NCBI GenBank assembly: GCA_035512495.1
Contig: DATKDW010000062.1
Span: forward strand, 50,957-114,956
Length of the DNA stretch: 64,000 bases
Reading direction: 5' to 3'
Origin: Acidimicrobiales bacterium
GTDB lineage: Bacteria; Actinomycetota; Acidimicrobiia; Acidimicrobiales; CADCSY01
The notes under the pieces were generated by a model. That model had not been told where the DNA came from. It saw nothing but the letters and a program-made list of their open reading frames with translations, and ran no database searches. The position numbers were made by a program, and so were the translations under genes. This document shows positions 44,303 through 62,266 of the stretch, piece by piece (the first letter of the stretch is position 1; each line of letters begins with the position of its first letter).

Positions 44303-44364
44303 GCCGGCGATGGTAGCGACCGGGCGGGGGGCGACCGGTGGACCGGTGCCGAGTCAGGGTGCCG

Positions 44365-44628
44365 TCAGATGCGGCACACCACCGGGAGGATCAGGAGCTG
44401 CATGCCGAAGATCACCACGATGGGCGAGAGATCGAGCCCCATGCCACCGAAGCGCACTGGGGGCAGGACCCTCCGCAGCGGTCCGAGCACCGGCTCGGTG
44501 ATGCCGTACAGGAAGGAGAACACCGACGCCATGGCGCCGCCCTGGCTGATCGGGAACCAGCTGAGGAGGATGCGGGCGAAGATGGCGTAGAAGTACAGCG
44601 TGCCGATCGTGCAGAGGAGCTGGCCCAC
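44365..44628 (-). CDS. yggT: YggT family membrane protein
   Basis: 87 aa with FARILLSWFP and ITEPVLGPLRRVLPP motifs. Confidence 0.88.
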   Translation of the reverse strand: MGQLLCTIGTLYFYAIFARILLSWFPISQGGAMASVFSFLYGITEPVLGPLRRVLPPVRFGGMGLDLSPIVVIFGMQLLILPVVCRI

Positions 44629-44631
44629 GGC

Positions 44632-45153: not shown

Positions 45154-45181
45154 CAGGGGACTCCTCCTTGCGAGGTGGACG

Positions 45182-45883: not shown

Positions 45884-46533
45884 GGCGCGATCCAGACGGC
45901 GAGGGCCTGGCGCTCGGGATCGCCGCCGGCCCGGTGCGACCAGTGGGCGTCGCTGCACGCTGTGCACGTGCCGCGGTCGTCGACCTCGGTGACACCGGCG
46001 GCGGCGAGGGCGGCGTGGACCCCGGCCGGGAGGTCGAGGGCGGGCCGGCCGGCGGCGGTGGTCGAACGAACGTGGTCACCGAGAGCGGAGGCCACCTCGT
46101 CGAGATCGGCGTCCCCGAACTCGTAGCACGACGGGTGGATGCAAGGCCCCACCACGGCACGGACCGGACCCGGGGCGAGGTCGCGCACCGCCTCGACCGA
46201 TGACGCCACGATGCCGGCGGCCAGCCCTCGCCAACCGGCGTGGACGGCAGCAACGGCACCCTCCCCGATCAGGGCGATGGGGGCGCAGTCGGCGGTCTGG
46301 ACCGAGACCACGGCCCCTGGCACGGCGGTCACGGCGGCGTCGGCCTCGGTCCCGGCGTGCGCACCGGGCGCCTCGACCCGCACGACCCGCGCCCCGTGGA
46401 CCTGGCGGAGCCACGTCCACGGCGCGTCGACGACTGCCCGTCGCCGGGCGTCGACGCCGGTCGAGTCGACGGCGAGGTCGCCGTCGGCCCGTCCGGTGAA
46501 GCGGATCTCGATCCTGCCGCCCAGCGCCCTCAG
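45880..46533 (-). CDS. pgeF: YfiH/YlmD (PgeF) family purine nucleoside phosphorylase / laccase-domain protein
   Basis: [31 protein letters not shown] and CT.C....SHR. The 5' end is provisional: no ATG/GTG/TTG lies between 46533 and the ORF-track start at 46665. Confidence 0.8.
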
Positions 46534-47609
46534 CGGAGGAAGGAGGGGACGTCGAAGTCGTCGTCGCCCTCGAGGTCGACCTCGTCGTCGGCGAAGACGT
46601 CTCGCCCACCCTCGTCGCCTGCCAGCGGGCGGGCGCGCTCCGAGCGGTCCTTGCCCTCCTCCCACCGGTCGAAGCCGGCGGCGATGACGGTGACGCGCAC
46701 CTCGTCGCCCATCGAGTCGTCGATGACCGTCCCGAAGATGATGTTGGCGTCGGGGTGGGCCACGCCGTGGATGACCTCGGCAGCCTCGTTGACCTCGAAG
46801 AGGCCGAGGTCGCTGCCGCCGGAGATGCTGAGCAGGATGCCGCGAGCACCTTCGATGGACGCCTCGAGCAGCGGGCTCGAGATCGCGGCGCGGGCGGCGT
46901 TGAGCGAGCGGCCCTCGCCCGACCCGTAGCCGATGCCCATGAGGGCGGACCCGGCATTGGTCATGATCATCTTGACGTCGGCGAAGTCGGTGTTGATCAG
47001 TCCCGGCGTCGTGATGAGCTCGGTGATGCCCTGCACGCCCTGGAGCAGCACCTCGTCGGCCATCTTGAAGGCGTTGAGCACCGAGGTCTTCTCGTTCGAG
47101 ACCGTGAGGAGCCGGTCGTTCGGGATGACGATGAGGGTGTCGACCTCGTCCTTCAGGCGCTGGATGCCCTGCTCGGCCTGGACCGAGCGGTTGCGCCCCT
47201 CGAAGGCGAAGGGCCGGGTGACCACGCCGATGGTGAGCGCCCCCAGGCTCTTGGCGATCTGGGCCACCACCGGGGCGCCACCGGTCCCGGTTCCGCCGCC
47301 CTTGCCGGCGGTGATGAACACCATGTCGGCGCCCTGGAGAGCGGCCTCGACCTCGGCACGGTGGTCCTCGGCGGCCTGGCGGCCGACCTCGGGGTCGCTG
47401 CCCGCCCCGAGGCCGCGGGTGACGTCCTGGCCGATGTCGAGCTTGAGCTCGGCGTCGCTCATCAACAGCGCCTGGGCGTCGGTGTTGACGGCGATGAACT
47501 CCACGCCCTTGAGCCCGGCATCGATCATGCGGTTGACGGCGTTGACGCCGCCCCCGCCGACGCCGACGACCTTGATCACCGCGAGGTAGTTCTGGGGGTT
47601 GCCGGCCAT
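46530..47609 (-). CDS. ftsZ: cell division GTPase FtsZ
   Basis: [27 protein letters not shown] and NTDFADV. GGGAGGG sits 6 nt upstream of the ATG ([11 protein letters not shown]). C-terminal [10 protein letters not shown] tail. Confidence 0.98.
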
Positions 47610-47746
47610 GTGTGTCCCTCCCGGGGAGTCAGTGGCGGCGGACCGCCGAACGTGCAAATGGCCGGGCTGACCCACAGGGGTCCCGCCCGGCCTTTACCTC
47701 AGGTGGAGGTTGAGCGTTCTGTCAACCTCTCGTTGTGATCGAGACT
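47610..47746 (-). promoter_or_regulatory. ftsQ-ftsZ intergenic leader with two hairpins
   Basis: GAGGTTGA (47706-47713) pairs with TCAACCTC (47722-47729). GGCCGGGC (47660-47667) pairs with GCCCGGCC (47685-47692). Confidence 0.35.
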
Positions 47747-48574
47747 CTACCCTCCCTCCGTCGTGCGGGTCAAGGCGGGCGACGTGGGCACCCGCACATC
47801 GATGGTCGCCACGCCCTCGAGGTTGGCACCGGCGAGCACGGCCTCCAGCGCCAGCAGCTTGGCCTCCAAGGCCTCGGGCGGGCCGAGGAGCGCCAGCGCA
47901 GACCGCTCCCCTCCGGCGATGGCGACCTTGGCGGTGAGGGCACCTTCGTCGTCGGCGACCACCGCCAGGACGTCCGGGCGAAGGGCCCCGGAGAGCATCG
48001 ACGCCACCCGGAGGGCCCCGGCGGCAGGGGCGCCGAGCAGATCGCCGACCTCACCGGCGACGCCGACCCCCTCGATCCGCGTGATCCCGCGGGGCACGTC
48101 GGCCACGCGCGCCAGCTGGTGGCCCTCGGCGTCGATGAGCATCCAGTCCGACTCCCCCGCCAGCGCCGCCACCGCCCGGCGCTCGACCACCTCGACCCGC
48201 ACCGTCCCGGGCCAGTCACGCATCACCCGGGCGTCGGCGACCCACGGCAGCGCCCGCACCCGTGCCGCAGCGCGGGCGGTGTCGAGGGTCACCATCGCCT
48301 CACCAGGACTGATGTCCGACGCTGCCCGCACCTCATCGGCGCCGGTCTGGCGTGCGCCCTTCACCTCCAGGGCATCGACATCGAGCAGCGGCGACAGCGC
48401 CAGGCCCCACAGCATCGCCACGACGCCCAGGGCGGCGGCGGCGAGACCGGCGCGGCGCAGGCGACGGCGGCCCTCGTGGCGTGCCACCTCGATGCGCCGG
48501 GCCCGGATGCGGGGGTCGATCACCGGTCTGGCCGGCCGTACCCTGGGCCGCCGAGGCGGCGCCGTGCTGCTCAA
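47747..48574 (-). CDS. ftsQ: cell division protein FtsQ
   Basis: Basic N-terminus, one TM helix and a POTRA-like region (LDVDALEVKGARQTGADEV). TTGA overlap with the murB stop (TTG start). Confidence 0.85.
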   Translation of the reverse strand: MSSTAPPRRPRVRPARPVIDPRIRARRIEVARHEGRRRLRRAGLAAAALGVVAMLWGLALSPLLDVDALEVKGARQTGADEVRAASDISPGEAMVTLDTARAAARVRALPWVADARVMRDWPGTVRVEVVERRAVAALAGESDWMLIDAEGHQLARVADVPRGITRIEGVGVAGEVGDLLGAPAAGALRVASMLSGALRPDVLAVVADDEGALTAKVAIAGGERSALALLGPPEALEAKLLALEAVLAGANLEGVATIDVRVPTSPALTRTTEGG

Positions 48575-49551
48575 CCCTCGACCTGCGATCGAGGGTCAAG
48601 CGATCGAGGGTCAGGGAAGCCGACGAGGCGCACCTCGGGGTGGAGGGCCACGCCGGTCTCGGCCTCGACCCGGCGCTGAACCTCGACGATCAGGGCCGCC
48701 ACGTCGTCAGCCCGGCCATCGGGATCGGCCTGGATGAAGTTGGCGTGCTTGTCCGAGACCTCGGCGGAGCCGAGTCTCATCCCCCGGCAGCCCGCCACGT
48801 CGACGAGGCGCCCGGCGGAGTCGCCAGGTGGGTTGGTGAAGACCGACCCTGCGTTCTGGCCGCCAGGCTGGTTGGCGCGCCGCCAGCGCACGATCTCGGA
48901 GACCTCCGCTGAGGCGGCTGCGGCATCACCCGGCGTCAGCTGGAACTCGGCGTCGAGGACGACTTGGGAGGGTCGCACCGCGGAGCGGCGGTAGCCGAGG
49001 TCGAGGTCACGGGCGAGCACCTGCTCATCGTTGCCGGTGGCGAGGTCGAATGCGCGGACCCGCAGCAGGGTCGCCGCCGTGTCGGAGCCGTGGCCCCCGG
49101 CGTTCATCCGCACCGCTCCACCCACCGTCCCGGGCACCCCGACCGCCCACTCCAGCCCGCGGAGGCCAGCCTTGGCGGTCCGGCGGGCCAGGACCGGCAG
49201 CGCCACGGCCCCACCGGCCCGCACGGTGGCCGAGCCGGCATCCAGCTCGATCCTGGCAAAGGCTTCACCGAGCACCAGGGCGAGGCCGGAGAAGCCGGCA
49301 TCGGCGACCAGCAGGTTGGAGCCGTTGCCGACCACCAGGGTGGGGATGCCACCCGCGTCGGCCGCCGCCCGGAGCGCCTCGGCGGCCAGGGCGAGGTCGT
49401 CGTCGCCCTCCACCTCCAGCAGGAGGGCCGCGGTGCCGCCCACCCGGTAGGTCGTGCGCGGGCCGAGGGGTTCGTCCCGCCGAGCTCGGGACCCGAGCAC
49501 GGCCGCCGCCGCGCCGAGGGCCGCCGGGTCGGTCACGGCGGTCCCGCTCAC
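48571..49551 (-). CDS. murB: UDP-N-acetylenolpyruvoylglucosamine reductase
   Basis: [35 protein letters not shown] and [12 protein letters not shown] overlap with the murC stop. Confidence 0.92.
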
Positions 49552-50981
49552 CCCGGCGACCCACCAACGAGCGGCAGGAGCTCGCCGGGGAGGGTGGTCA
49601 GGTCGCCGGCGCCGAGGGTCAGGCAGAGGTCGCCCGGCCGCAGCTCGTGGACGAGCCACGACCGGAGGTCGTCGCGCCGAGGCAGCCAGGCCACCCGCTG
49701 GTGGGGGTGGGCGTCGAGAACGGCATCGACGATGAGCTTGCCCGAGACGCCCGGGATCGGCGCCTGCCCGGCGGCGTAGATGTCGGTGACCGCGACCACG
49801 TCGGCATCGGTGAAGGCATCGGCGAAGGATCGCCACAGGTCGGCTGTCCGGGTGTAGCGGTGAGGCTGGAAGGCGCACACGATCCGGTCCCACCCACCGG
49901 CCCGGGCCGCCTCGAGCACCGACGCCACCTCGGTCGGGAGGTGGTCGTAGCTGTCGACGAAGGTCACGCCGCCGGCCTCGCCCCGTCGCTCGAAGCGCCG
50001 TCCCACGCCGGCGAAGGCGGCCAGGCCACGTCGGAGGCCCTCGACGTCGGCGCCGAGGGCACGGCCGACGGTGACCACGGCTGCCGCGTTGCGGGCGTTG
50101 TGCAGCCCCGGCGACGGCAGGCGGAAGCGACCGAGGTCGTCGGCCCCGGCCCGCAGGGCGAAGCTGACGCCGTCGCGGTCGGTCGTCACGTCGAAGAGCT
50201 GCACGTCGGCGGCCTCGCTCGTTCCGTAGGTGGTGCACCCGCCGACCCGGGTGGCCAGGGCGGCAGCGACGGGGTCGTCGGCGCACACCACCCGCGGGCC
50301 GGGCGAGGCGAGCAGGAAGCGGGCGAAGGCGTCCTGGAGCGCCTCGAAGCTGCCGTGGTGATCGAGGTGGTCGGGCTCGACGTTGGTGACGATGACCGCC
50401 TCGGCACCGAGCTCGAGGAAGGTCCCGTCGCTCTCGTCGGCCTCGACCACGAACCAGCCGTCGATACCCCCTCCCCATGCGGCGCCGGTGCCGATCCCGT
50501 TGACGTCGCCGCCCACGATGAACGACGGCTCAAACCCCGCCTCGCGGAGGGCGATGGCGAGCATCGCCGTGGTGCTGGTCTTGCCGTGGGTGCCGCTGAC
50601 CGCCACCGTTCGCCGGGTGGCGCAGATGGCTGCCAGCGCCTCGGCCCGTCGCAGCACGGGCACACCGGCGGCCCGGGCGGAGGCGACGTCGGGGTCGTCG
50701 GCGCGGATCGCCGTCGAGATCGCCACCGCGTCGGCGGCGGCGGCACCCTCCGGGTCGGCCCCCACGGTGACGGCGATGCCCAGGCCGGCGAGGCGGTCGA
50801 GGACCGCAGACGGCCGCTGATCGCTACCCGACACCTGGTGGCCCATGGCGACGAGCACGGTGGCGATGGCGCTCATGCCCGAACCGCCGATGCCGACGAC
50901 GTGCAGGCGGCTGGGGACGGAGAGGTCGAGGGAGGAGGCGCCGATGGGCGCCGAGACTACCGCCCGGGCGACCTCGGCCAT
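49548..50981 (-). CDS. murC: UDP-N-acetylmuramate--L-alanine ligase
   Basis: HVVGIGGSGMSAIA, VSGTHGKTSTTAM and EADESDGTF. Start is ATG 50981; GTG 50990 is an alternative. Confidence 0.93.
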   Translation of the reverse strand: MAEVARAVVSAPIGASSLDLSVPSRLHVVGIGGSGMSAIATVLVAMGHQVSGSDQRPSAVLDRLAGLGIAVTVGADPEGAAAADAVAISTAIRADDPDVASARAAGVPVLRRAEALAAICATRRTVAVSGTHGKTSTTAMLAIALREAGFEPSFIVGGDVNGIGTGAAWGGGIDGWFVVEADESDGTFLELGAEAVIVTNVEPDHLDHHGSFEALQDAFARFLLASPGPRVVCADDPVAAALATRVGGCTTYGTSEAADVQLFDVTTDRDGVSFALRAGADDLGRFRLPSPGLHNARNAAAVVTVGRALGADVEGLRRGLAAFAGVGRRFERRGEAGGVTFVDSYDHLPTEVASVLEAARAGGWDRIVCAFQPHRYTRTADLWRSFADAFTDADVVAVTDIYAAGQAPIPGVSGKLIVDAVLDAHPHQRVAWLPRRDDLRSWLVHELRPGDLCLTLGAGDLTTLPGELLPLVGGSPG

Positions 50982-51022
50982 CGTGCCCACCCCGCTGCCG
51001 GGCGTGGCAGAATCGCCCCTCC

Positions 51023-52147
51023 ATGGCTGCCGGCGACCTCTCCTTCGTGATCGCCGCCGGCGGCACCGGCGGTCACATCTACCCGGGGCTGGCGTTGGCG
51101 GAGGCGATCCGCCGGGCACGCCCTGAGGCGGCGATCGCCTTCGCCGGCACGAGCCGGGGGCTCGAGGGGCGCCTGGTGCCCGAGGCCGGCCACCCCCTGC
51201 ACGTCTACGGGATGGTGCAGTTCGCGGGGAGGGGCTGGCGCAAGGCGCTGGTCCCGCTCGCCCTCGGCCGCGCATCGCTCCAGGCCCGCTCGATCCTGCG
51301 CCGCGCCTCGGCCGACGTGGCCGTCAGCATGGGTGGCTACACGGGGATCCCCCTTGTCGTCGGCGCCCGGCTGGCCCGGGTCCCCTCGCTGATCCACGAG
51401 CCCGGGGCGGTGCCCGGCAAGGCCAACACCCTCGCCGCCCGCTTCACCCGCAACGTGGCGACCTCGTTCCCCCAGACCCGCTTCGGCGGCACCGAGGTCC
51501 GTCACGTGGGCTACCCCCTGCGCACCTCCATCACCTCCTTCGACCGGGACGCCCTGCGGGCCGACTCCCGCCGCGCGTTCGGCCTCGCCAACGGGACCGC
51601 GATGGTCCTCGTCACGGGCGGGAGCCAGGGTGCGATGTCGCTCAACCGCCTCGCCCTCGGCCTCGCCGAGCGCTGGGCCGGCCGCGACGACATCCGCATC
51701 GTCCTCAAGGCCGGCGCCCGCAGCCACGAGGAGGTGGAGTCGGCGCTGACCGCCAACCCCGGCGGTCACCTCGTCGACCTGGTGCGCTACATCGACCGCA
51801 TGGACCACGCCTATGCCGCCGCCGACGTGGCGGTGTGCCGGGCCGGGGCCGGGACGGTCACCGAGCTGGCCATCGTGGGTCTGCCCTCGGTGCTGGTCCC
51901 CTATCCCCACGACGAGCACGACGAGCAGGTCCACAACGCCGAGCCGCTGGTGGCGTCGGGCGGCGCCGTGCTGGTGCGCGACCACGAGGCGACCGCCGAG
52001 GTCGTCGGTCCTGTGCTCGAAGCTCGCCTGGGCGATCCCACCAGGCTCACCGAGATGCAGGCGGCCATGCGGGCCAGCGCCCGGCCGCACGCCGCCGACG
52101 ACCTCGCCGCCTGGGCGATCGAGCTGGCCGAGCGGGGGCGGCGGTGA
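51023..52147 (+). CDS. murG: UDP-N-acetylglucosamine--N-acetylmuramyl-(pentapeptide)-pyrophosphoryl-undecaprenol GlcNAc transferase; opposite strand to the rest of the dcw cluster
   Basis: AAGGTGGHIYPGLALAEA, SMGGYTG, VTGGSQGA, AADVAVCRAGAGTVTELA and DEQVHNAEPL align with E. coli MurG as I recall it. Confidence 0.92.
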   Translation: MAAGDLSFVIAAGGTGGHIYPGLALAEAIRRARPEAAIAFAGTSRGLEGRLVPEAGHPLHVYGMVQFAGRGWRKALVPLALGRASLQARSILRRASADVAVSMGGYTGIPLVVGARLARVPSLIHEPGAVPGKANTLAARFTRNVATSFPQTRFGGTEVRHVGYPLRTSITSFDRDALRADSRRAFGLANGTAMVLVTGGSQGAMSLNRLALGLAERWAGRDDIRIVLKAGARSHEEVESALTANPGGHLVDLVRYIDRMDHAYAAADVAVCRAGAGTVTELAIVGLPSVLVPYPHDEHDEQVHNAEPLVASGGAVLVRDHEATAEVVGPVLEARLGDPTRLTEMQAAMRASARPHAADDLAAWAIELAERGRR

Positions 52148-53166
52148 CCCTCTCCCCCACCCAACCCGCGGTCGAGGCGCTGCGCGCCCTGGAGGCCGGC
52201 TTCGCCCCGGTGCTCGAGGACGGCCGCGTCGTGGGCACGGTGTCCGACCGCTCCATCCGCCGGACCCTGCTCACCACCGCCGACTGGTCGGCGCTGCGGG
52301 TCGCCGACGTCCTCGACGACCCGCCCCTCACCGTGTCCCCGTCGACGCCCGACGTCGAGGTCCGGGCGGTGCTCGAGCGCAACCATGTCCGCGCCGTCGC
52401 CGTGGTCGACGACGACCGCCTCGTCGGCACCCGCACGGTCGCCGACGTCGAGGCGGCCATCCCGGCCACCACCGCGGTCGTCATGGCCGGTGGCAAGGGC
52501 AGCCGGCTCCAACCCCTCACCGACAAGGTCCCCAAGCCGCTGCTGGCGGTGGGGCGGGCGTCGATCCTCGAGCGCCTGCTCGAGAACTTCCACGAGGCGC
52601 TCGTCGGCGACGTGTGGCTGGCCGTCAACTACATGTCGGAGATGATCGAGGACCGCATCGGCGACGGCTCCGACTGGGGGGTGCGAGCCCGCTACCTCCA
52701 CGAGGAGCAGCCGCTGCACACTGCCGGGGCGCTGGCGCTGCTGCCCGAGCGCCCCGAGGGGCCCATCCTGGTCACCCACGCCGACCAGGTCACGACCCTG
52801 CCGTTCGCCCGGATGGTCGACTACCACCTGGCCGAGGGGGCAGCGATCACGGTCGGGGCCTTCTACCACGAGGTCGCGGTCCCCTACGGGGTGCTGCGCA
52901 TCGACGAGGTGGCGCTCACGGAGATCGACGAGAAGCCGACGCTGCGCTTCCCCTGCTTCGCCGGCTTCACCGTCCTCGACCCGGCGATGCTCGACCTGGT
53001 GCCGCCAGCGACGGTGTTCTCCATGGTCGACCTGATCGAGGCGGCCCGCGCCGCCGGCCACCGGGTGGTGGTGTTCCCGATCGTCGAGATGTGGCTCGAC
53101 ATCGGCAACTGGGAAGAGCTCAACCGGGCCCTCCTGTGGTCCGTGACCGGCGAAGAGGTGATGTAG
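52144..53166 (+). CDS. CBS-domain pair fused to a sugar-phosphate nucleotidyltransferase
   Basis: GTG start in a GTGA overlap with the murG stop. The N-terminal ~120 aa is CBS-like (VLEDGRVVGTVSDRSIRR and AVAVVDDDRLVGTRTVADV), followed by VVMAGGKGSRLQPLTDKVPKPLL. Confidence 0.8.
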   Translation: MTLSPTQPAVEALRALEAGFAPVLEDGRVVGTVSDRSIRRTLLTTADWSALRVADVLDDPPLTVSPSTPDVEVRAVLERNHVRAVAVVDDDRLVGTRTVADVEAAIPATTAVVMAGGKGSRLQPLTDKVPKPLLAVGRASILERLLENFHEALVGDVWLAVNYMSEMIEDRIGDGSDWGVRARYLHEEQPLHTAGALALLPERPEGPILVTHADQVTTLPFARMVDYHLAEGAAITVGAFYHEVAVPYGVLRIDEVALTEIDEKPTLRFPCFAGFTVLDPAMLDLVPPATVFSMVDLIEAARAAGHRVVVFPIVEMWLDIGNWEELNRALLWSVTGEEVM

Positions 53167-54150
53167 GTGAAGTGGTCGGACAAGACGGTGCTCGTCACCG
53201 GCGGCGAGGGGTTCATCGGCTCCACGCTGGTCGAGCGGCTCGTGCAGGAGGGTGCCCGCGTGCGGGCCCTGACGCTGTACAACCCCTTCGGCCGGTACGG
53301 CTGGCTCGACCCGGTGGTCCACACCGAGGTGGAGGTGCTCCCCGGCGACGTCCGCGACGCCGAGCGCACCTTCGAGGCCGTCGACGGCTGCGACGTGGTC
53401 TTCCACCTCGCGGCGCTCATCGGCATCCCCTACAGCTACGTGGCCCCGGAGAGCTACGTGCAGGTCAACGTGAACGGGACCACCAACGTGGCCATGGCCT
53501 GCCGCCGTGCGGGCGTGGAGCGGATGGTCCACACCTCCACCAGCGAGACCTACGGCACCGCCATCACCGCCCCCATCAGCGAGGACCACCCGCTCCAGCC
53601 GCAGTCCCCGTACTCGGCCTCCAAGATCGGCGGCGACATGATGGCGCTGTCGTTCCACCACGCCTTCGAGCTCCCGGTGGCGGTGGTGCGGCCCTTCAAC
53701 ACCTATGGCCCCCGCCAGTCCAACCGCGCCGTGATCCCCACCATCCTCACCCAGCTCCACGCCGGGGCGACCGAGATCAAGCTCGGGAGCACCACCCCCA
53801 CGCGCGACTTCAACTACGTCGACGACACCGTCGCCGGCTTCCTCGCCGTCGCCGCCTGCGACCGGGCGGTGGGCGAGGTCGTCAACATCGGCTCCGGACG
53901 GGAGATCTCCATCGGCGACCTGGTGCGGACCCTCATCGAGGTCACCGGGGCCGAGGCCGAGGTGGTCACCGACCCGGACCGGATGCGTCCCGCAGGCTCG
54001 GAGGTGGAGCGGTTGCTCTGCGACAACAGCCGGGCCCGGGAGTGGGCGGGCTGGGAGCCCGAGGTGAGCCTCGAGGAGGGTCTGCGCCGGACCTCCGACT
54101 GGATCCGCGAGCACCGCCACCTGATCGACACCGCCGGCTACGCCGTCTGA
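53167..54150 (+). CDS. extended-SDR NAD-dependent nucleotide-sugar epimerase/dehydratase
   Basis: VTGGEGFIGS, STSETYG and YSASK (YxxxK). GTG start immediately follows the upstream TAG stop. Confidence 0.88.
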   Translation: MKWSDKTVLVTGGEGFIGSTLVERLVQEGARVRALTLYNPFGRYGWLDPVVHTEVEVLPGDVRDAERTFEAVDGCDVVFHLAALIGIPYSYVAPESYVQVNVNGTTNVAMACRRAGVERMVHTSTSETYGTAITAPISEDHPLQPQSPYSASKIGGDMMALSFHHAFELPVAVVRPFNTYGPRQSNRAVIPTILTQLHAGATEIKLGSTTPTRDFNYVDDTVAGFLAVAACDRAVGEVVNIGSGREISIGDLVRTLIEVTGAEAEVVTDPDRMRPAGSEVERLLCDNSRAREWAGWEPEVSLEEGLRRTSDWIREHRHLIDTAGYAV

Positions 54151-54170
54151 CCGTCCCCGGGGGGGAACAC

Positions 54171-55346
54171 GTGAGCGAACTGAGCACGCCGGCCGGGCCC
54201 ACGGACCGACCGGGCACGCCGAGGAGCCTCCTGCCCACCCTGGCCCGGGCCGGCTCCGTCGCCTGGTGGCTCGTGGGCATCGGCCTCGCCGTCTCGTTCG
54301 CGTTCATCCTCTTCTTGCGGCTGCGGCTGGTGATGCTTCCGCTGATCATCGCCCTCCTGATCACCACCCTCCTCCAGCCGCTCGCCGACCGCTTGGAGCG
54401 ACTCGGCCTCCGCCGACTCCCCGCCACCTGGCTGGTCTTCTTCGGGGGGGCGGCGGTCGTCATCGGAGCCCTGGTGCTGATCGTGCCCCAGACGGTCGGG
54501 CAGTTCGCGCAGCTCGGCGAGGACCTCGAGTCGGCCCTCAGGGAGATCGAGGAGTGGCTCGTCACCGGCCCCCTCGACCTCTCGGAGCAGCAGGTCGAGG
54601 GGTACGTGAACCAGGCCATCGACTCGATCCGCGGGGACACCGGGTCCGCGATCACCTCCCGGCTGCTCACCGGTGCCGCCATCGCCGGCGAGATCCTCGC
54701 CGGGATCGCCCTCTCGCTCGTGCTGGTCTTCTTCTTCGTCAAGGACGGGCACCAGATCGCCGAGTGGGCCTACGGCCACGCCCCCGACGACCGTCGGGCC
54801 GCCTACCGGGCCGCCGGGCAGCGGGCCTGGGAGAGCCTCGCCGGCTACCTGCGCGGAACGGCAATCACCGGGATGCTCGATGCCGTCCTCATCGGGCTCG
54901 GCCTCCTCGTCATCGGCGTGCCCCTCGTGCTCCCCCTAGCGATCATCACCTTCTTCGCCGCCTTCTTCCCCGTGGTCGGGGCCCCGACCGCGGGGCTGCT
55001 GGCGGTGCTCGTGGCACTGGTCAGCGGCGGGTTCCGGGACGCCCTCACCGTCCTCGCACTGGTCTTCGTGGTGCAACAGATCGAGAGCTACCTCTTCGCA
55101 CCGTCGATCATGGGCCGGGCCGTGCGCCTCCATGCCGTGGTCGTCCTGGTCGTGCTCACCACTGGCGGGCTCATGGCCGGGCTGATCGGCGCGTTCCTCG
55201 CCGTCCCCACCACTGCCGTGGCCGTCGCCGTGGTCTCGGAGCTGCGGGCGTGGGACCGCCGCGGCGGGGCGCCTGGACCCGTGGGGCCGCCGGTGTCACT
55301 ACCCCTCGACGCTGCCTCCCGGCACCGGGGGCCGTCAGCGGGTTAG
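54171..55346 (+). CDS. AI-2E (PerM/YhhT) family transporter
   Basis: Polytopic membrane protein with FFFVKDG and FFAAFFPVVGAP motifs typical of the family. GTG start in frame within ORF 51813..55346. Confidence 0.85.
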   Translation: MSELSTPAGPTDRPGTPRSLLPTLARAGSVAWWLVGIGLAVSFAFILFLRLRLVMLPLIIALLITTLLQPLADRLERLGLRRLPATWLVFFGGAAVVIGALVLIVPQTVGQFAQLGEDLESALREIEEWLVTGPLDLSEQQVEGYVNQAIDSIRGDTGSAITSRLLTGAAIAGEILAGIALSLVLVFFFVKDGHQIAEWAYGHAPDDRRAAYRAAGQRAWESLAGYLRGTAITGMLDAVLIGLGLLVIGVPLVLPLAIITFFAAFFPVVGAPTAGLLAVLVALVSGGFRDALTVLALVFVVQQIESYLFAPSIMGRAVRLHAVVVLVVLTTGGLMAGLIGAFLAVPTTAVAVAVVSELRAWDRRGGAPGPVGPPVSLPLDAASRHRGPSAG

Positions 55347-56533
55347 TGCCTCGCGGCCCGCTCCGCGGGGTGGGCCGGTGAGCGCCGGGCGAGGCCACGG
55401 CCCTGGCGGGCGATGTTCAGGAGGATCCCGCAGGACGCCATCACCAGCAAGATCGACGACCCGCCGTAGGAGATGAACGGCAGCGTCACGCCGGTGATCG
55501 GGAGGATCCCGATCACCCCGCCGATGTTGACGAAGGCCTGCACCACGACCCAGGCGGTGATCCCCGCCGCCACCAGGGTCCCGAACCGGTCGGGGGCGGC
55601 GATGGCGACCTTGGTGCCGAGGACGGCGAAGCCCACGAAGCACGCCACGACCGCCAAGCCGCCGACGAGGCCGAGCTCCTCGGCGATGATGGCGAAGATG
55701 AAGTCGGTGTGGGCGTTGGGGAGGAACCCGTACTTCGCCCGGCTGGCGCCGAGGCCGACGCCGAGCAGGCCGCCCGAGGCCACCCCCATCAGCGACTGGT
55801 TGATGTGGTAGCCGACGTTGCCGGGGTCGGCCGACGGGTCGAGGAAGGCGAGGATGCGACGCCGTCGGTACGGCGCCCGGAGGGCGAGCACGACGGCGGC
55901 GGCGCCACCGGCGGCGACGACGGCGCTGAGGCGCAGGAGGGGCACCCCGGCCACGAACAGCACGGCGACGACGATGGCTCCGATCACGAGAGTGGACCCG
56001 AGGTCGGGCTGCAGCAACATCAGCCCCGAGGTGACGATGAGCACCGTCAGCACCGGCCGGAGGGTGACCCGTTCCTCGGCCATGCGGTCGGCGCGACGCG
56101 TCAGCAGGTCGGCGGCGAAGAGCAGCGCCGCCAGCTTCACCAGCTCGGCGGGCTGGAAGCGCACCGCCCCGGAGCCCACCCACCGGCCGGCGCCGTTGAC
56201 CTCGATGCCCACCCCCGGGACGAGGACGGCGACCAGCAGCAGCCACGAGAGCCCGAGGAGCGGCACTGCGACGCGGCGCCAGCGCCGGTAGTCGACCCGC
56301 ATCGCCGCCACCAGCGCAGCCGTGCCGACGGCGACGTAGAGCGCGTGGCGCACGAAGTACGTCCAGGTGGAGTCTGTCTCCTCGAACGCCTGCACCGAGG
56401 AGGCCGAGAGCACCATGACCAGGCCGATGGTGCTGAGCACCGCGACCAGCGCGGCGAGGAGGGCAAAGGTGGAGGTGCCGGCGGGCGTCGGCGCCGGGCG
56501 GCGGCGGCTGGTGGGCGCGGCGGTCCGGCTCAC
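55343..56533 (-). CDS. ftsW: lipid II flippase / SEDS peptidoglycan glycosyltransferase FtsW
   Basis: FtsW/RodA/SpoVE family: RFQPAELVKLA, PDLGSTLV, HTDFIFAIIAEELG and PFISYGGSS. Confidence 0.92.
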   Translation of the reverse strand: MSRTAAPTSRRRPAPTPAGTSTFALLAALVAVLSTIGLVMVLSASSVQAFEETDSTWTYFVRHALYVAVGTAALVAAMRVDYRRWRRVAVPLLGLSWLLLVAVLVPGVGIEVNGAGRWVGSGAVRFQPAELVKLAALLFAADLLTRRADRMAEERVTLRPVLTVLIVTSGLMLLQPDLGSTLVIGAIVVAVLFVAGVPLLRLSAVVAAGGAAAVVLALRAPYRRRRILAFLDPSADPGNVGYHINQSLMGVASGGLLGVGLGASRAKYGFLPNAHTDFIFAIIAEELGLVGGLAVVACFVGFAVLGTKVAIAAPDRFGTLVAAGITAWVVVQAFVNIGGVIGILPITGVTLPFISYGGSSILLVMASCGILLNIARQGRGLARRSPAHPAERAARH

Positions 56534-57882
56534 CGCCGGCTCCCGCGCTGCTCATGGACGGCCCGGGCGAAGTCGTCGCCGCGCTCCCCGTAGCCGCCGT
56601 ACCAGTCGAACGAGGCGCACCCCGGCGACAGCACCACGGCGTCGCCGGGTCGGGCGACGGCGCGGGCGACATCGACGGCGTCGTCCATCGACGTCGCGGT
56701 GGTGACCTCCACGCCGGTGCCGGCGAAGGCCGTGGTCACCTCGGCCGCCGCCTCACCGATGGCCACCACGTGGCGGAGCCGGTCGGCCGAGTCGGCAAGG
56801 ACCGACAGGTCGAGGCCTTTGTTGCGGCCGCCCGCCAACAGCACCACCGAGTCGAAGCCGGCGATCGCCGCGGCTGTGGCGTGGGGGTCGGTCGCCTTCG
56901 AGTCGTCGTAGAACCGCACCCCGCCATCATCGGCGACCAGGGCCAGCCGGTGGGGGAGCCCCCGGAAGGCCAGAAGGGCGTCCCGCACCGCCTGCCGGGG
57001 GATCCCGGCCTCGAGGGCGCAGGCGGCCGCCGCCAGGGCGTTGGTCAGGTCGTGGGGAAGGGCCCGGAAGAGCTCGTGACCTACAACCAAGACTGACCCG
57101 TCGGGCAGCACCAGGGCTCCGTCCACCACTCGGTAGTCGGTTTGTCCTACGCCGAAGGTCACCACCCGGCCCGGAGCCCCAGAGGCGGCTGCCATCACCA
57201 CGGGATCGTCGGCGTTGACGATGGCGACGTCTTCCGGGCGCTGGCTGGCCCAGATCCGCGCCTTCGAGTGCGCGTAGTGCTCCATGTCGGGGTGCCAGTC
57301 GAGATGGTCCTCGGCCAGGTTGAGCCAGAGGGCGACATCGGGTCGGAAGGTCTCGGTGAACTCCAGCCGGAAGGACGAGGCCTCGACCACGACGAGGTCG
57401 AGGCCGTCGTCGAGCACCGCGACGAGTGGCACATCGTTGTTGCCGGCGGCGGCGGTGCGGCGGCCAGCCGCGGTGACCATGTCGGCGACGAGCGTCGTCA
57501 CCGTGGTCTTGCCGTTGGTGCCGGTGATGGCGACCACCGGTGGAAGACCCCAGCGAGCGGCCAGCTCGAACTCGCTCCAGACCGGCACGCCCCGGTCCAC
57601 AGCGGCGACGAGCACCGGGTGGGTGGGGCAGACCGCGGGACTGGGCACGACCACCGCCACCGTGTCGAGCAGGGCCACCGCCTCCTCTCCCGAGGGCGCC
57701 TCCACGAGGGTCAGCCCCAACTCGGTGGCGACCTGCCTGGCACGCTCCCCCGGCTGGTCCTCGATGGCGACCACCTCCACGCCCCGGCGCCGCAGCTCGC
57801 GAGCGGTGACCACCCCCGCTTGGCCGAGGCCGATGACCAGGGCCGGGCCGGGGACGCTGGCGGCCGGCGTCGGGCCGGCCAT
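56530..57882 (-). CDS. murD: UDP-N-acetylmuramoylalanine--D-glutamate ligase
   Basis: ITGTNGKTTVT, FRGLPHRL and DDSKATDPHA. Start overlaps the mraY stop by 1 nt (TGATG). Confidence 0.93.
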   Translation of the reverse strand: MAGPTPAASVPGPALVIGLGQAGVVTARELRRRGVEVVAIEDQPGERARQVATELGLTLVEAPSGEEAVALLDTVAVVVPSPAVCPTHPVLVAAVDRGVPVWSEFELAARWGLPPVVAITGTNGKTTVTTLVADMVTAAGRRTAAAGNNDVPLVAVLDDGLDLVVVEASSFRLEFTETFRPDVALWLNLAEDHLDWHPDMEHYAHSKARIWASQRPEDVAIVNADDPVVMAAASGAPGRVVTFGVGQTDYRVVDGALVLPDGSVLVVGHELFRALPHDLTNALAAAACALEAGIPRQAVRDALLAFRGLPHRLALVADDGGVRFYDDSKATDPHATAAAIAGFDSVVLLAGGRNKGLDLSVLADSADRLRHVVAIGEAAAEVTTAFAGTGVEVTTATSMDDAVDVARAVARPGDAVVLSPGCASFDWYGGYGERGDDFARAVHEQRGSRR

Positions 57883-58919
57883 CAGTCGATGACCCCGGGG
57901 ATCGAGATGTAGTCGGCGTAGAAGATGCCCACGCCCATGCCGGTCGCCATCCCCGCCAGGATCCAGAACCGGATGATCACCGTGATCTCCGGCCATCCGC
58001 CCAGCTCGTAGTGGTGGTGGATCGGGGCCATGCGGAACACTCGACGGTGGAAGAGGCGGAACGACGCCACCTGGACGATCACCGACAGCGTCTCGATCAC
58101 GAAGATGCCGCCGACGATCGGCAGCAGGAGGTGGGTGTTGGTCATCAGCGCCAGACCGGCCAGGCCCGAGCCGACGGCGAGGGAGCCGGTGTCGCCCATG
58201 AAGATGCGAGCCGGCGCTGCGTTCCACCAGAGGAAGCCCGCGCACGCCCCGACCATCGCCGCCGCGACCAGCGCCAGGTCGAAGGCGTGGGGCTGGCGAT
58301 AGATCTCGAAGTGGCGGAACGACCAGAAGCCGATGATCACGTATGCCGAGAAGGAGAAGAGGGCGGAGCCGGCAGCCAGGCCGTCGAGCCCGTCGGTGAG
58401 GTTGACGGCGTTGCTGGTCCCGAGGATCAACAGGACCGCCCAGACACCCCACACCCAAGGACCGAGGTCGATGTCAAGGGCATCGAACCGCGTGAAGGAC
58501 AGGTTCGTGCTGACCGGGGTGTGGAACACGGCGATCACGGCGAAGCCGACCGCCACGGTGAGGAGGCCGGCCACCTTGGTCCGCTTGTTGAGGCCGAGGT
58601 TGCGGGCGTTGCGGACCTTGATCCAGTCGTCGAGGAAGCCGACGACGCCTGCACCGGCGATCGCGCCAATGACCAGGAGGCCGCTGCGGGTGAAGATGGC
58701 GCCCTCGCGGAGGTGGGCCAGCACGTAGCCCGCCATCGCGGCGCCCACCACGGTGATGCCCCCCATGGTGGGCGTTCCCGCCTTGGTGAAGTGCCCGCTC
58801 GGGCCGTCCTCGCGGATCGGCTGGCCGATGCCGTGGGCCCGCAGCCAGGTGATGAGGAAGGGCGTCCCCACGAGCGAGACCACGAGGGCGACCCCACTCG
58901 AGATGAGGAGCGCGATCAC
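57882..58919 (-). CDS. mraY: phospho-N-acetylmuramoyl-pentapeptide transferase
   Basis: PTMGG, NAVNLTDGLDGLA, FMGDTGSL and APIHHH. Confidence 0.96.
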   Translation of the reverse strand: MIALLISSGVALVVSLVGTPFLITWLRAHGIGQPIREDGPSGHFTKAGTPTMGGITVVGAAMAGYVLAHLREGAIFTRSGLLVIGAIAGAGVVGFLDDWIKVRNARNLGLNKRTKVAGLLTVAVGFAVIAVFHTPVSTNLSFTRFDALDIDLGPWVWGVWAVLLILGTSNAVNLTDGLDGLAAGSALFSFSAYVIIGFWSFRHFEIYRQPHAFDLALVAAAMVGACAGFLWWNAAPARIFMGDTGSLAVGSGLAGLALMTNTHLLLPIVGGIFVIETLSVIVQVASFRLFHRRVFRMAPIHHHYELGGWPEITVIIRFWILAGMATGMGVGIFYADYISIPGVID

Positions 58920-60373
58920 CGGCCCTCCCCCTCGGCACGGAGGCGGTCGAGCTCCTCACGCACGACGACCCGGTCGTCGAGCTCGATGGTGCGGTCACCG
59001 AGGGTCTGAGTCGTCTCGTGGCCCTTGCCTGCCACGATGACGACATCGCCGTCGGTGGCGTGGCGCAGGGCGAGGGCGATCGCCGCCCGCCGGTCGGGCT
59101 CGACCTCGATCGCCGCCCCGGAGGCGGCACCACTGCGGATGGCATCGATGATGGCCATGGGTTCCTCGCTGCGGGGGTTGTCGGACGTGATGACGCTGAG
59201 GTCGGCCAGCCGGCTCGCCACCTCGCCCATGGCGGGGCGCTTCTCCCGGTCCCGGTCGCCGCCGCACCCGAACACGATGACCACCCTGCCACCGGAGCCG
59301 ATCTCGCGTGCCGCCCGCAGGACCTGCTCGATCCCGTCGGGCGTGTGGGCGTAGTCGACGATCACCGCCACCGGCGGGCCCGCTGCCACCACCTCGAAGC
59401 GCCCGTCGATCGGACCGACCGACGCCAGGCCCTCGGCCACCGCGTCGAGGGGGACCCCGACCTCTAGCGCGGCGGTCGCCGCTGCAAGGGCGTTGCGGAC
59501 GTTGAACTCCCCCGAGAGCGGCAGGTGAATCCGCTCGCCCTGCCACGTGAACGTCGCCCCGGTCATGTGCAGCTCGAGGTCTGACGCGTCGTCGAGGGAG
59601 TAGGGCCTGGTGGGGATGCGGGCGGCATCGAGGAGGAGCCGGCCGTGGGGGTCGTCAGCGTTGACCACCGCACGCTCGGAGCGCTCCGGCTCGAAGAGCA
59701 TCGCCTTGGCCGAGAAGTAGTCCTCCATGGTGGCGTGGATGTCGAGGTGGTCGCGACTGAGGTTGGTGAAGACCGCGACGGCGAAGCGGGTCCCGTCGAC
59801 ACGACGCTGGATCAGGCCGTGAGATGAGACCTCCATCGCCACCGCCTCGGTGCCGGCGGCGAGGAGGGAGGCCAGGCGGGCCTGCAGGTGAGCGGCACCG
59901 GGTGTGGTCGGTGGCTGGGACACGCCGGCGCGGTCGACGGGGCTGAGCGTCCCGATGGTGGCCGCCGGTCTCCCCGCCGCCCGGAGCACCGCGGCGAGGA
60001 TCGCCACCGTGGTCGTCTTGCCGTTGGTGCCGGTGACGCCGACGATGTCGAGGTGGTGGGACGGGTCGCCGTGGAGGCGAGCCGCGAGCGGGCCGATGGC
60101 GGCCCGGCTGGAGGGGACCAGCACCTGTGGCACCGCCAGCGGGAGCTCGCGCTCGCACACCAGCGCCACCGCGCCCCGGGCGACCGCGTCGGCGGCGAGG
60201 TCGTGGCCGTCGACGTTCGCCCCCGGCACGCAGCAGTAGAGCGAGCGCTCCGCCACCTCGCGGGAGTCCTCGGTCACCGCCGTCACCGACACCTCGCCGG
60301 GGTCGCCGACGAGCTCGACGTCGGTGATGGCGTCGAGGAGGTCGGTCAGGGGGACGGGGGCATGTTCGGCCAC
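58916..60373 (-). CDS. murE: UDP-N-acetylmuramoyl-L-alanyl-D-glutamate--2,6-diaminopimelate ligase (MurE, not MurF)
   Basis: VTGTNGKTTT, DYAHTPDG, FGCGGDRDREKRPAMG, TSDNPRSEEP and AGKGHE are MurE signatures. No MurF-type YNANP or GDM.ELG motifs. Confidence 0.92.
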   Translation of the reverse strand: MAEHAPVPLTDLLDAITDVELVGDPGEVSVTAVTEDSREVAERSLYCCVPGANVDGHDLAADAVARGAVALVCERELPLAVPQVLVPSSRAAIGPLAARLHGDPSHHLDIVGVTGTNGKTTTVAILAAVLRAAGRPAATIGTLSPVDRAGVSQPPTTPGAAHLQARLASLLAAGTEAVAMEVSSHGLIQRRVDGTRFAVAVFTNLSRDHLDIHATMEDYFSAKAMLFEPERSERAVVNADDPHGRLLLDAARIPTRPYSLDDASDLELHMTGATFTWQGERIHLPLSGEFNVRNALAAATAALEVGVPLDAVAEGLASVGPIDGRFEVVAAGPPVAVIVDYAHTPDGIEQVLRAAREIGSGGRVVIVFGCGGDRDREKRPAMGEVASRLADLSVITSDNPRSEEPMAIIDAIRSGAASGAAIEVEPDRRAAIALALRHATDGDVVIVAGKGHETTQTLGDRTIELDDRVVVREELDRLRAEGEGR

Positions 60374-60379
60374 GCCGCT

Positions 60380-62266
60380 TCAGTCTCGCGGCACGACGAT
60401 GGTGTCGGGGTCGACCACCACGGGCGGCTCGACGATCGGGGTGGCCGAGGGCGGGATCCGCAGGAGGCGCAGGGCGTACCTGGAGATGCCACCGAACACC
60501 GGAGCCGAGGTCAGGCTGGCGTAGTAGGGGCTCGGCTCGTCGAGGACGACGATGGCCGAGAGCTGGGGGTCCTCGGCCGGCACGAAGCCCGCGAAGGTGG
60601 CAACGTAGGCCCCCTCCTCGTACCCCCGGTGGGTCCTCGACGGCTTGCGGGCAGTCCCGGTCTTGCCCGCCACGCTGTAGCCCGCGATCTGGGCTCGCTG
60701 GCCCGTCCCCTCCGTCGAGGCCACCACGTTGGTGAGGATGGCCCGCATCTGCTCGGCCGACGCGGCCGAGATCACCCGCCGCCGGGGTGACCGGTCGGCG
60801 AGGTGCTCGGTGCCGTCGGCGTCGAGGGTGGACCGCACGAGGGTCGGTGTGACGAGGACACCGTCGTTGGCGATGGCATTGAAGGCCCCGAGCATCTGCA
60901 GCGCGTTGACGGCGATGCCCTGGCCGATGGAGATCGACCCGATGGACGGCCCCGTCCACTCGTCCAGGTCGAGGAGGATGCCGTTGGACTCCCCCGGGAA
61001 CCCGAGCCCGGTGGACTGCCCGAAGCCGAACCGACGCAGATAGGCGTCGACCCGCTCGGGGCCGAGGGCCTGCCCGATCTGGATCGTGCCAACGTTGGAC
61101 GACCTCGTGATGACGTCGGTGAACGAGCTCGGGCCGGACCTCGGGTGCTCGTCGGAGAAGCGCTTCACCGAGACCTGGACCGCAGGCGGGACCTCCCAGG
61201 TCTGCTCGGGCGTGTAGAGGCCCTCCTCCAGCGCGGCTGCCGCAACGACCACCTTGCTGACCGAACCGGGCTCGAAGAGCGTGGTCACGGCCATGTTGTC
61301 CCGGCTGGGCCGAGGCGGGCCTCCGGCGGCGTCGGCCCGAAGGTTGGCCAGCGCCAGGATCTCACCCGTGCGCGGGTCCATCACGATGGCGCTGCCGCCG
61401 GCGGCGCCGGTGGCGAGGATCTGGTCGCCGAGCGCGCGCTCGACCTCGTACTGCAGCGAGCGGTCGATGGTGAGCACGAGGTCGTCGCCCCGCTCGGCCG
61501 GCGACAGCCGGTGCTCCCCTGCCGCGATGGTCCGGCCTCCCGGTCCCCGCTCGAGAATCAGCTCGCCCGGCACACCGACGAGGCGGTCCTCGTAGACCAG
61601 CTCGAGGCCGGCGGTGCCCTGGTTGTCGATGTCGACGGTGCCGAGCACCGACGCCGCCAGCGATCCCGCCGGGGTGAAGCGGTGCGACTCGTCGAGCAGG
61701 CTGACGCCATCGAGGCCGAGGCTGCTCACGGTCTCGGCCACGTCGGCGTCGACCTGGCGCGACAGGTACACGAACGCGCCGCTGCCGCCGAGGCGCCGGA
61801 CGAGCACCTCGTGGTCGACCCCGAGCACCGGGGCCAGGGCGTCGGCGGCCCCCTCTGGGTCGGTCACCAGCCGGGGGTCGGCCCAGACGGTGTGCCGGCG
61901 GACGGACATGGCCAGCTCGCTGCCGTTGCGGTCGAAGATGGATCCCCGCTCGGCCGGGAGCACGATCGCACGCAGCCGCTGGGCGACTCCCCTCGCCGCG
62001 TAGTCGTCGGGAGAGACCACCTGCAGCTGGGTCAGGCGGACGGCCACGAGGGCGAAGGCCAGCGCCAGGGCGACCAGGAGTCCGAGGGCCCGTCGGGCCG
62101 GCGACCCGACGCCGGCCTGGGGACGCGCCGGGGGGCGGCGGGCAGGGGGCGGCGGCCTGCCGGCCCGGCTCCCGGTTCGGGCAGGGCGCGGGCGGGTGGC
62201 TGCGCGAGGTGGAGCGCCCCCGGGCCGGCGTGGTGCGCCACGCCGCGGAGGGCGCGTCGCCGTCAC
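60380..62266 (-). CDS. ftsI: penicillin-binding protein, division-specific transpeptidase (FtsI/PBP3 class B)
   Basis: TM anchor, a dimerisation domain and a transpeptidase domain with PGSVSKV (SxxK), SSN and KTGTA. GTG at 62266 gives a GTGA overlap with the ftsL stop; the ORF-track start is 62302. Confidence 0.9.
   Translation of the reverse strand: MTATRPPRRGAPRRPGGAPPRAATRPRPARTGSRAGRPPPPARRPPARPQAGVGSPARRALGLLVALALAFALVAVRLTQLQVVSPDDYAARGVAQRLRAIVLPAERGSIFDRNGSELAMSVRRHTVWADPRLVTDPEGAADALAPVLGVDHEVLVRRLGGSGAFVYLSRQVDADVAETVSSLGLDGVSLLDESHRFTPAGSLAASVLGTVDIDNQGTAGLELVYEDRLVGVPGELILERGPGGRTIAAGEHRLSPAERGDDLVLTIDRSLQYEVERALGDQILATGAAGGSAIVMDPRTGEILALANLRADAAGGPPRPSRDNMAVTTLFEPGSVSKVVVAAAALEEGLYTPEQTWEVPPAVQVSVKRFSDEHPRSGPSSFTDVITRSSNVGTIQIGQALGPERVDAYLRRFGFGQSTGLGFPGESNGILLDLDEWTGPSIGSISIGQGIAVNALQMLGAFNAIANDGVLVTPTLVRSTLDADGTEHLADRSPRRRVISAASAEQMRAILTNVVASTEGTGQRAQIAGYSVAGKTGTARKPSRTHRGYEEGAYVATFAGFVPAEDPQLSAIVVLDEPSPYYASLTSAPVFGGISRYALRLLRIPPSATPIVEPPVVVDPDTIVVPRD

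Follow-up and report, generated by a model that had tools for sequence, protein, structure and literature searches.

The organization of the division and cell wall (dcw) gene cluster was analyzed in a 64-kb stretch of DNA from an Acidimicrobiales bacterium (64,000 nt, GenBank assembly GCA_035512495.1, contig DATKDW010000062.1), the whole of which is referred to here as the window. The canonical dcw order is mraZ-rsmH-ftsL-ftsI-murE-murF-mraY-murD-ftsW-murG-murC-...-ftsQ-ftsZ. In the window, the slot between ftsW and murC is occupied by plus-strand genes, the first of which encodes a protein of the MurG family (GT28, glycosyltransferase family 28), and the dcw genes on both sides of it lie on the minus strand. 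At a G+C content of 73% open reading frames alone are unreliable, and genes were therefore called from third-position G+C together with Pfam and NCBIfam profile searches, which reproduced all gene calls and strands of the cluster. The features at the center of the analysis are as follows.

49548-50981, minus strand: murC (TIGR01082, 438.6 bits versus a cutoff of 335), which heads the downstream unit and is divergent from the plus-strand genes
50982-51022, no strand: divergent intergenic region of 41 nt from the murC start to the murG-like start, read directly from the sequence
51008-51013, plus strand: CAGAAT, a -10-like hexamer with TGG before it (extended -10-like), 9 nt before the murG-like ATG
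51023-52147, plus strand: murG-like gene of the GT28 family (PF03033 and PF04101, 374 aa)
52144-53166, plus strand: nucleotidyltransferase with CBS and NTP_transferase domains (PF00571 and PF00483)
53167-54150, plus strand: extended short-chain dehydrogenase/reductase (SDR) of the LegB-like NDP-hexose 4,6-dehydratase type (TIGR04180, 456.5 bits)
54171-55346, plus strand: AI-2E family permease (PF01594, 195.9 bits; start codon GTG at 54171)
55343-56533, minus strand: ftsW (TIGR02614, 389.3 bits versus a cutoff of 337.5), the last gene of the rsmH-to-ftsW unit and convergent with the plus-strand genes

An earlier, sequence-only reading of this DNA had placed rsmH to ftsW and murC to divIVA on the minus strand and murG with three further genes on the plus strand, and the Pfam and NCBIfam calls agree with it. 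Its 41-nt divergent gap and its 4-nt convergent overlap of stop codons were likewise recovered: the murC start (CAT, 50979-50981) begins at 50981 and the murG-like ATG lies at 51023, and the AI-2E stop (TAG, 55344-55346) and the ftsW stop (complement of 55343-55345) share the four nucleotides TTAG at 55343-55346. The four plus-strand genes are tightly packed, with the murG-like TGA overlapped by the GTG start of the nucleotidyltransferase (GTGA), the GTG start of the SDR abutting the nucleotidyltransferase stop, and a gap of 20 nt between the SDR and the permease. The view that the cluster is not one co-directional transcription unit follows from this divergent and convergent layout, and a plus-strand unit in the murG slot divides the dcw cluster into at least three transcription units.

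The order murC (minus), GT28, nucleotidyltransferase and SDR (all plus) and, beyond a variable position, ftsW (minus) was common to ten independent lineages, referred to as inverted in the following. These are the window, two NCBI metagenome-assembled genomes (MAGs; L002 and L003), the JGI contigs L010/L011 (634 kb), L013/L014 and L102, the ENA contigs L012 and L103, and the metagenome contigs L016 and L017. A protein search with the window GT28 returned at least 120 clusters at 62-100% identity. A metagenome scan with a profile of the subfamily was swamped by generic MurG proteins that share the motif GTGGHIYP and recovered four subfamily loci; as an orientation control, 76 generic murG loci from the metagenome scan were inspected, and murG was co-directional with its dcw neighbor in every unrelated locus in which a neighbor could be detected (68/68). 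Gene content and gene order flanking the murG slot match those of other Acidimicrobiales. The arrangement is fixed in one clade of the Acidimicrobiales.

The history of the flanking genes was compared with that of the murG-like gene, using neighbor-joining trees with a simple distance correction throughout. A tree of concatenated MurE, MraY, MurD, FtsW and MurC (1904 columns) recovered both the Acidimicrobiia and the inverted clade as monophyletic (100% bootstrap support each) and placed the inverted clade as sister to L006, a lineage with a canonical co-directional murG (93%), with further canonical lineages outside that pair. This topology indicates that the canonical arrangement is ancestral and was changed once. 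The tree of 148 MurG-family proteins is incongruent with the flank tree. The inverted group again received 100% support, but in 299 out of 300 bootstrap replicates it fell, together with the MurG-like genes of L004 (an Actinomycetota MAG) and L005 (Streptomyces), in a clade that comprised 40 taxa or fewer and no canonical MurG of the Acidimicrobiia, and no replicate (0/300) joined the inverted and canonical groups to the exclusion of the copies outside dcw. Pairwise identities agree with this picture: the inverted and canonical MurG proteins of the Acidimicrobiales share only 35-42% identity, compared with 48-70% for MurC, MurD, MurE and MurB, and the nearest relatives outside the clade are the L004 and L005 genes (47-54%), which have no dcw gene within 10 kb. 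Within the inverted group (63-80%) and within the canonical Acidimicrobiales (51-68%), MurG identity tracks MurC identity.

Short signatures also separate the two groups. Inverted-type proteins carry GGTGGH (117/120) and xEPG (119/120), whereas canonical Acidimicrobiales MurG proteins carry GGTAGH (112/120) and xEQN (119/120); the remaining members of the subfamily combine GGTGGH with HESN or HESG. HESG is found in L016 and L017, the two most divergent, early-branching inverted lineages, and in the three-gene modules outside dcw of L004, L097 and L018, a distribution that points to such a module as the probable source of the inverted genes. A further motif, ERWAGRDD, is present in 18/120 inverted-type and 2/120 canonical proteins. 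It was only through this motif, shared with the query, that the canonical loci L006-L009 came to light, so its presence in them reflects sampling bias and is no evidence of kinship. The borders of the module showed no meaningful inverted repeats or mobile-element traces, only weak chance repeats. Judged by these comparisons of sequence, the module GT28 is non-orthologous to the canonical MurG of the Acidimicrobiia, and the "inverted murG" of the sequence-only reading gives way to a member of a different MurG subfamily whose nearest relatives, by identity and by tree, lie outside dcw in other Actinomycetota. Among the cluster representatives of the MurG family, some are 800-850 aa long (P0137, 803 aa; P0147, 853 aa; P0266, 820 aa), which suggests a fusion to another domain or enzyme.

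In every examined context that includes the downstream region, the same LegB-like SDR lies downstream of the subfamily GT28. A nucleotidyltransferase lies between the two in all inverted lineages that have the downstream region and in L004 and L097, and it was also seen on the short contigs L015 and L018, which end before any SDR. It is lacking in the Streptomyces loci L005, L095 and L096 and in a 414-aa form of the gene in L098/L099. Since L095 is a 10.1-Mb Streptomyces chromosome (CP023699), the linkage extends to complete Streptomyces chromosomes, and in Streptomyces the GT28-SDR pair coexists with a canonical murG. The window SDR is 70-71% identical to the SDRs that adjoin the MurG-like genes of L004 and L005. 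At the position of the Asn in the canonical HEQN loop, the GT28 has Gly in 11/11 modules with a nucleotidyltransferase and Asn in 4/4 modules without; this is a correlation, and each of the two groups may be a single clade and not a set of independent events.

The conserved unit consists of three genes, and the fourth position is variable and not part of the module, so that the four-gene operon of the earlier reading has to be shortened by one gene. An AI-2E permease is found only in the window and in L013/L014, in the latter behind two minus-strand genes; elsewhere the position holds a small open reading frame and a protein with a weak match to PF04188 (Mannosyl_trans2) (L010), a 411-aa protein without a Pfam match (L102) or two minus-strand genes (L012), and in L103 it is empty. 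Outside dcw, the neighbors of the module include an LCP ligase (L005) and a GT87 gene (L098). In Streptomyces, the MurG-like gene and SDR adjoin a divergent response regulator and histidine kinase in L095 (5802-7936) and L096 (5816-7936) and a divergent histidine kinase in L005 (7815-9926), where it was the sole upstream gene scanned. These two-component neighbors hint at control of the module by envelope stress.

The window GT28 has the two-domain GT-B architecture of MurG (PF03033, 90.8 bits; PF04101, 118.9 bits), can be aligned over its full length with MurG structures (E = 5.7e-46 to Pseudomonas aeruginosa MurG, 3S2U) and is annotated as MurG by PGAP (HUF33366.1). Its TIGR01133 score of 247.9 bits is 2.3 below the equivalog cutoff of 250.25. 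This score was tried as a means of separating the two MurG lineages and failed, as the ranges of the inverted type (230-262 bits) and of the canonical dcw MurG of the Acidimicrobiia (222-268 bits) overlap. The motifs GGTGGH, GGSQGA, AGAGTVTEL and EQVHNAE align to the P. aeruginosa and Acinetobacter baumannii MurG structures and are invariant or nearly so across the subfamily. The equivalents of E269, Q289 and N292 in the alpha/beta/alpha motif are kept; these Glu, Gln and Asn residues of the C-terminal motif are the donor residues of MurG that bind UDP-N-acetylglucosamine. The clear difference is in the HEQN acceptor loop, which is not kept and reads HEPG in the window; in MurG this loop has been described as critical for accommodating lipid I (PMC8256705). 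Judged from its sequence, the window GT28 is a probable lipid II synthase.

The nucleotidyltransferase has an N-terminal pair of CBS domains and reaches no NCBIfam model at cutoff (the best is MurU, 100 bits versus 250), and its best matches among known structures are nearly equal, MurU (4Y7T) at 76 bits and the GDP-mannose pyrophosphorylase GMPPB at 75 bits. The TIGR04180 score of the SDR falls below the cutoff of 475. The SDR carries the motifs GGEGFIG, STSETYG and YSASK, the last two of which fit a dehydratase-type SDR. The Glu that it retains is typical of 4,6-dehydratase and decarboxylase SDRs rather than of GalE-type epimerases.

The divergent gap between murC and the murG-like gene is 39-54 nt long in the relatives and 189 nt in L103. 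The sequence-only reading had noted CAGAAT 9 nt before the murG ATG and the absence of a Shine-Dalgarno sequence, and had suggested, as a speculation, a leaderless or nearly leaderless murG mRNA. Both details hold in the sequence, as there is no Shine-Dalgarno sequence in CGCCCCTCC, the stretch between CAGAAT and the murG-like ATG. The suggestion gains comparative support: a hexamer of the form NANNNT ends 9-10 nt before the murG-like ATG in 10/10 lineages, in intergenic DNA that otherwise cannot be aligned, compared with a background frequency of 1.67% per position for NANNNT in these loci. The hexamers are CAGAAT, CAGACT (four lineages), GAGACT (two lineages), GAGAAT, CATACT and TACGCT, and TGn precedes the hexamer in 6/10 lineages. 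The conserved hexamer fits an actinobacterial -10 element that would drive an mRNA whose leader is absent or no longer than about 3 nt, and it supports a predicted near-leaderless murG-like gene. As NANNNT reads as NANNNT on the opposite strand with a shift of 1 nt, one symmetric -10 element could serve both divergent units; the presence of a -10 hexamer on the opposite strand was dropped as evidence, since the pattern itself entails it. Also considered as a murC promoter was a TAGTCT-like motif on the minus strand, ahead of the conserved portion of MurC; it lies inside the coding sequence (codons V-V-S) and was dropped. No Rfam match was found in the region.

In the window, the ATG at 50981 is the sole standard start codon of murC upstream of the Rossmann motif HVVGIGG. 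The murC starts of L002, L003, L010 and L016 are poorly defined: in L002 (around 4100-4200) the stretch from the upstream stop to the HVVGxGG motif contains none of the start codons ATG, GTG and TTG, and in the other three a usable start first appears 9 to 27 codons ahead of this motif.

At its other end the module converges with ftsW and the two genes overlap, by 4 nt in the window and by 40 nt in L010 (14567-14606) and L102 (12275-12314). Each transcript must therefore terminate within the neighboring gene, and as these three loci leave no intergenic space at the ftsW end, the 3' ends of the two units must form overlapping antisense RNA.

We propose the following course of events. In the ancestor of the inverted clade, the canonical co-directional murG between ftsW and murC would have been replaced in situ by an oppositely oriented three-gene module (GT28, CBS-nucleotidyltransferase and LegB-like SDR) from an actinobacterial MurG subfamily that otherwise lies outside dcw and, in Streptomyces, exists beside a canonical murG. 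The GT28, with the MurG donor and catalytic motifs kept, would then have taken over lipid II synthesis, and its partners would make a sugar of the NDP-(4-keto-)6-deoxy-hexosamine type. The module would be transcribed from the hexamer with a leader of 0 to 3 nt, and murC-murB-ftsQ-ftsZ would have a promoter of their own within this gap, which could be the symmetric -10 element itself, read on the other strand. That a module of a distinct MurG subfamily displaced the canonical gene appears highly likely from the identities, trees and signatures. That its GT28 now supplies the lipid II synthase activity of the clade is slightly favored, on the basis of the intact donor site, the exact coincidence with the murG slot and the precedent of the MurG-like protein MglA, which can replace MurG in Kitasatospora and Streptomyces (PMC8092295). 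The account as a whole, displacement and new role together, is given moderate credence.

Several observations weigh against this account. No canonical murG was found within the 64-kb window, the part of the genome that was read, and a relocated copy may lie elsewhere; a genome scan with the ERWAGRDD pattern is insensitive to a second canonical murG, given the rarity of the motif in canonical proteins, and the matches listed in a search with the canonical MurG of L006 were all at least 64% identical and uninformative on this point, so that the search for a second murG proposed in the sequence-only reading is answered for the window only. Essential mur genes do relocate, as murF already lies outside the cluster in the Acidimicrobiia. 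The coexistence with canonical MurG in Streptomyces and the constant tie to the SDR argue for a native role other than plain lipid II synthesis, and the lipid I acceptor loop is changed from HEQN to HEPG. Extra constraint on the GT28 of the inverted clade was looked for in the ratio of GT28 to SDR divergence and no difference was seen, the ratio being no lower there (1.56) than elsewhere (1.33). The deep nodes inside the subfamily are weakly supported in trees built by neighbor-joining only, and, as regards the promoters, a generic sigma-70 promoter and terminator scan found nothing in the region.

The possibility that the module does another job, for example initiating a wall glycopolymer or glycolipid on a lipid carrier with the sugar that the nucleotidyltransferase and SDR make, and that canonical murG moved elsewhere as murF did, so that its former slot just holds an insertion, draws on several of these points, namely the departure of murF from the cluster, the altered acceptor loop (PMC8256705) and the strict GT28-SDR linkage combined with coexistence in Streptomyces (PMC8092295), and also on the envelope-glycan neighbors of the module (the LCP ligase in L005, GT87 in L098 and the weak PF04188 match in L010). 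However, it requires that an insertion and a relocation coincided precisely at the murG slot; no second GT28 was found in the window or within 8-10 kb on either side in any related locus; and the GT28 scores no worse as MurG than the canonical genes of the class and has its donor residues intact. We regard this explanation as unlikely, if a serious one. A further reading, in which the module is a self-contained pathway, is less likely still and is considered doubtful: the GT28 would use the sugar made by the nucleotidyltransferase and SDR and, as the only lipid II-type synthase of the clade, would yield the wall precursor or an obligatory variant of it through a modified hexosamine step in place of the universal MurG reaction. 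Such a pathway would fit the altered acceptor loop (HEQN to HE[S/P]G) in 11/11 nucleotidyltransferase-bearing modules.

A simple inversion of the ancestral murG in place, with three genes added behind it, would explain why the gene occupies the murG slot and bears the PGAP annotation MurG, and ERWAGRDD is common to some canonical Acidimicrobiales MurG proteins. It is nevertheless very improbable, as the gene is closer to copies outside dcw in other classes than to the canonical genes of its own order, a break that the flanking genes do not show, and as the bootstrap analysis never united the inverted and canonical groups without the copies outside dcw and the flank and MurG trees disagree. The motif itself is rare among canonical proteins and its presence in L006-L009 stems from the way these were selected, and the borders lack the inverted repeats or mobile-element traces that were looked for. 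The last explanation, an assembly artifact in which a MAG contig was chimerically joined or falsely inverted, finds its only support in the fact that the window comes from a metagenome-assembled genome and is negligible in our view: a Logan contig from SRR8556377 covers both junctions at 100% identity, and junctions of the same types are present in assemblies from JGI, ENA and NCBI that represent nine other lineages, the longest contig measuring 634 kb.

The remaining dcw genes of the window were identified by NCBIfam and Pfam and all lie on the minus strand.

43358-49551, minus strand: downstream dcw block (murB, ftsQ, ftsZ, pgeF-like, yggS, sepF, yggT and divIVA)
46530-47675, minus strand: ftsZ
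47747-48574, minus strand: ftsQ
48571-49551, minus strand: murB, between murC and ftsQ
56530-63734, minus strand: upstream dcw block (murD, mraY, murE, ftsI, a putative ftsL and rsmH)
56530-57900, minus strand: murD, upstream dcw block
57882-58919, minus strand: mraY, upstream dcw block
58916-60373, minus strand: murE, the ligase adjoining mraY
60380-62302, minus strand: ftsI, upstream dcw block
62745-63734, minus strand: rsmH, upstream dcw block

Two details depart from the sequence-only reading. The AI-2E gene starts at the GTG at 54171, and there is no murF in the 64-kb window, where tblastn finds just three Mur ligases (murC, murD and murE); the ligase adjoining mraY is murE. The murE stop overlaps the mraY start (57882-60373), leaving the canonical place of murF empty. 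Most of the related loci in the Acidimicrobiales, whether inverted or canonical, likewise have a single ligase there (L007-L010, L012, L013 and L100); the exceptions are L101, which has both ligases, and L006, which has space for a second. In L102 (4869-6584), one 571-aa gene call joins the FAD-binding domain of MurB and the POTRA domain of FtsQ, which may be a fusion or a frameshift, and in L103 (5477-6483) no gene was called in the 1 kb that separates ftsQ from murC, the expected place of murB. Between divIVA and ileS, the window encodes a protein of about 254 aa without a Pfam or NCBIfam match (42457-43221, minus strand), and genes of 254-261 aa without a Pfam match occupy the same position in L010 (1719-2504) and L012 (1496-2260).

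Its conserved gene order and orientation make the dcw cluster a textbook example, and murG is treated as universal and encoded there. The clade described here shows the murG slot naturally taken by a different MurG lineage that brings its own sugar-nucleotide enzymes and a predicted promoter of its own. The sequence-only reading had considered that the arrangement might be common and already described in the clade; it is common, occurring in ten lineages, and a literature search, which was incomplete, found no paper that describes it in the Acidimicrobiia, nor any report of a MurG-like gene occupying the dcw murG slot or of a conserved MurG-SDR(-nucleotidyltransferase) module. There is also a warning for annotation, as automatic pipelines give the name MurG to both lineages, which the TIGR01133 score does not distinguish; the signature that does is GGTGGH with HE[S/P][G/N] versus GGTAGH with xEQN.

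Compared with the canonical dcw cluster, the window differs in that the murG slot holds a plus-strand unit of three or four genes, murF is missing and murB sits between murC and ftsQ. The combination of a CBS-containing sugar-1-phosphate nucleotidyltransferase with a LegB-like NAD-dependent 4,6-dehydratase resembles the PtmE/LegB step of legionaminic acid biosynthesis (TIGR04180). The legionaminic cassette includes an aminotransferase and NeuA-, NeuB- and NeuC-like genes, whereas in all ten lineages no aminotransferase, NeuB-, NeuC- or NeuA-like gene was found in the unit, the SDR stays under the TIGR04180 cutoff and the partner gene is a GT28 instead. The single -10-like element in a very short divergent gap, recognized here by its sequence pattern, is like the symmetric bidirectional promoters that have been described in bacteria (PMC10268837, PMC12825309).

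Accessory murG-like genes attached to van (glycopeptide-resistance) operons are found in Actinobacteria outside dcw, sometimes beside a two-component system (PMC8698665). The Streptomyces copies of the present subfamily are similar in having two-component genes nearby, but they have no vanHAX genes in their vicinity and their partner is an SDR with or without a nucleotidyltransferase. A further known counterpart is MglA of Kitasatospora viridifaciens, the experimental precedent for paralogues that make lipid II and, like the window GT28, a MurG-family protein with PF03033 and PF04101 that is distinct from the canonical actinobacterial dcw MurG (PMC8092295). The comparison with MglA (BOQ63_RS12640) is based on its published description, which mentions no linked SDR; by its coordinates MglA has about 350 aa, compared with 374 aa here (PMC8092295). 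Unlike MglA, which is encoded outside dcw and beside a canonical murG, the window gene lies reversed in the murG slot itself, with no canonical murG in the cluster or the window, and it is the Streptomyces members of the GT28 subfamily that match the setting of MglA. If the module GT28 is the only MurG of the clade, it would define a widespread, uncharacterized MurG-SDR module that is present in many Streptomyces genomes, and the arrangement would be the natural counterpart of the laboratory replacement of MurG by MglA.

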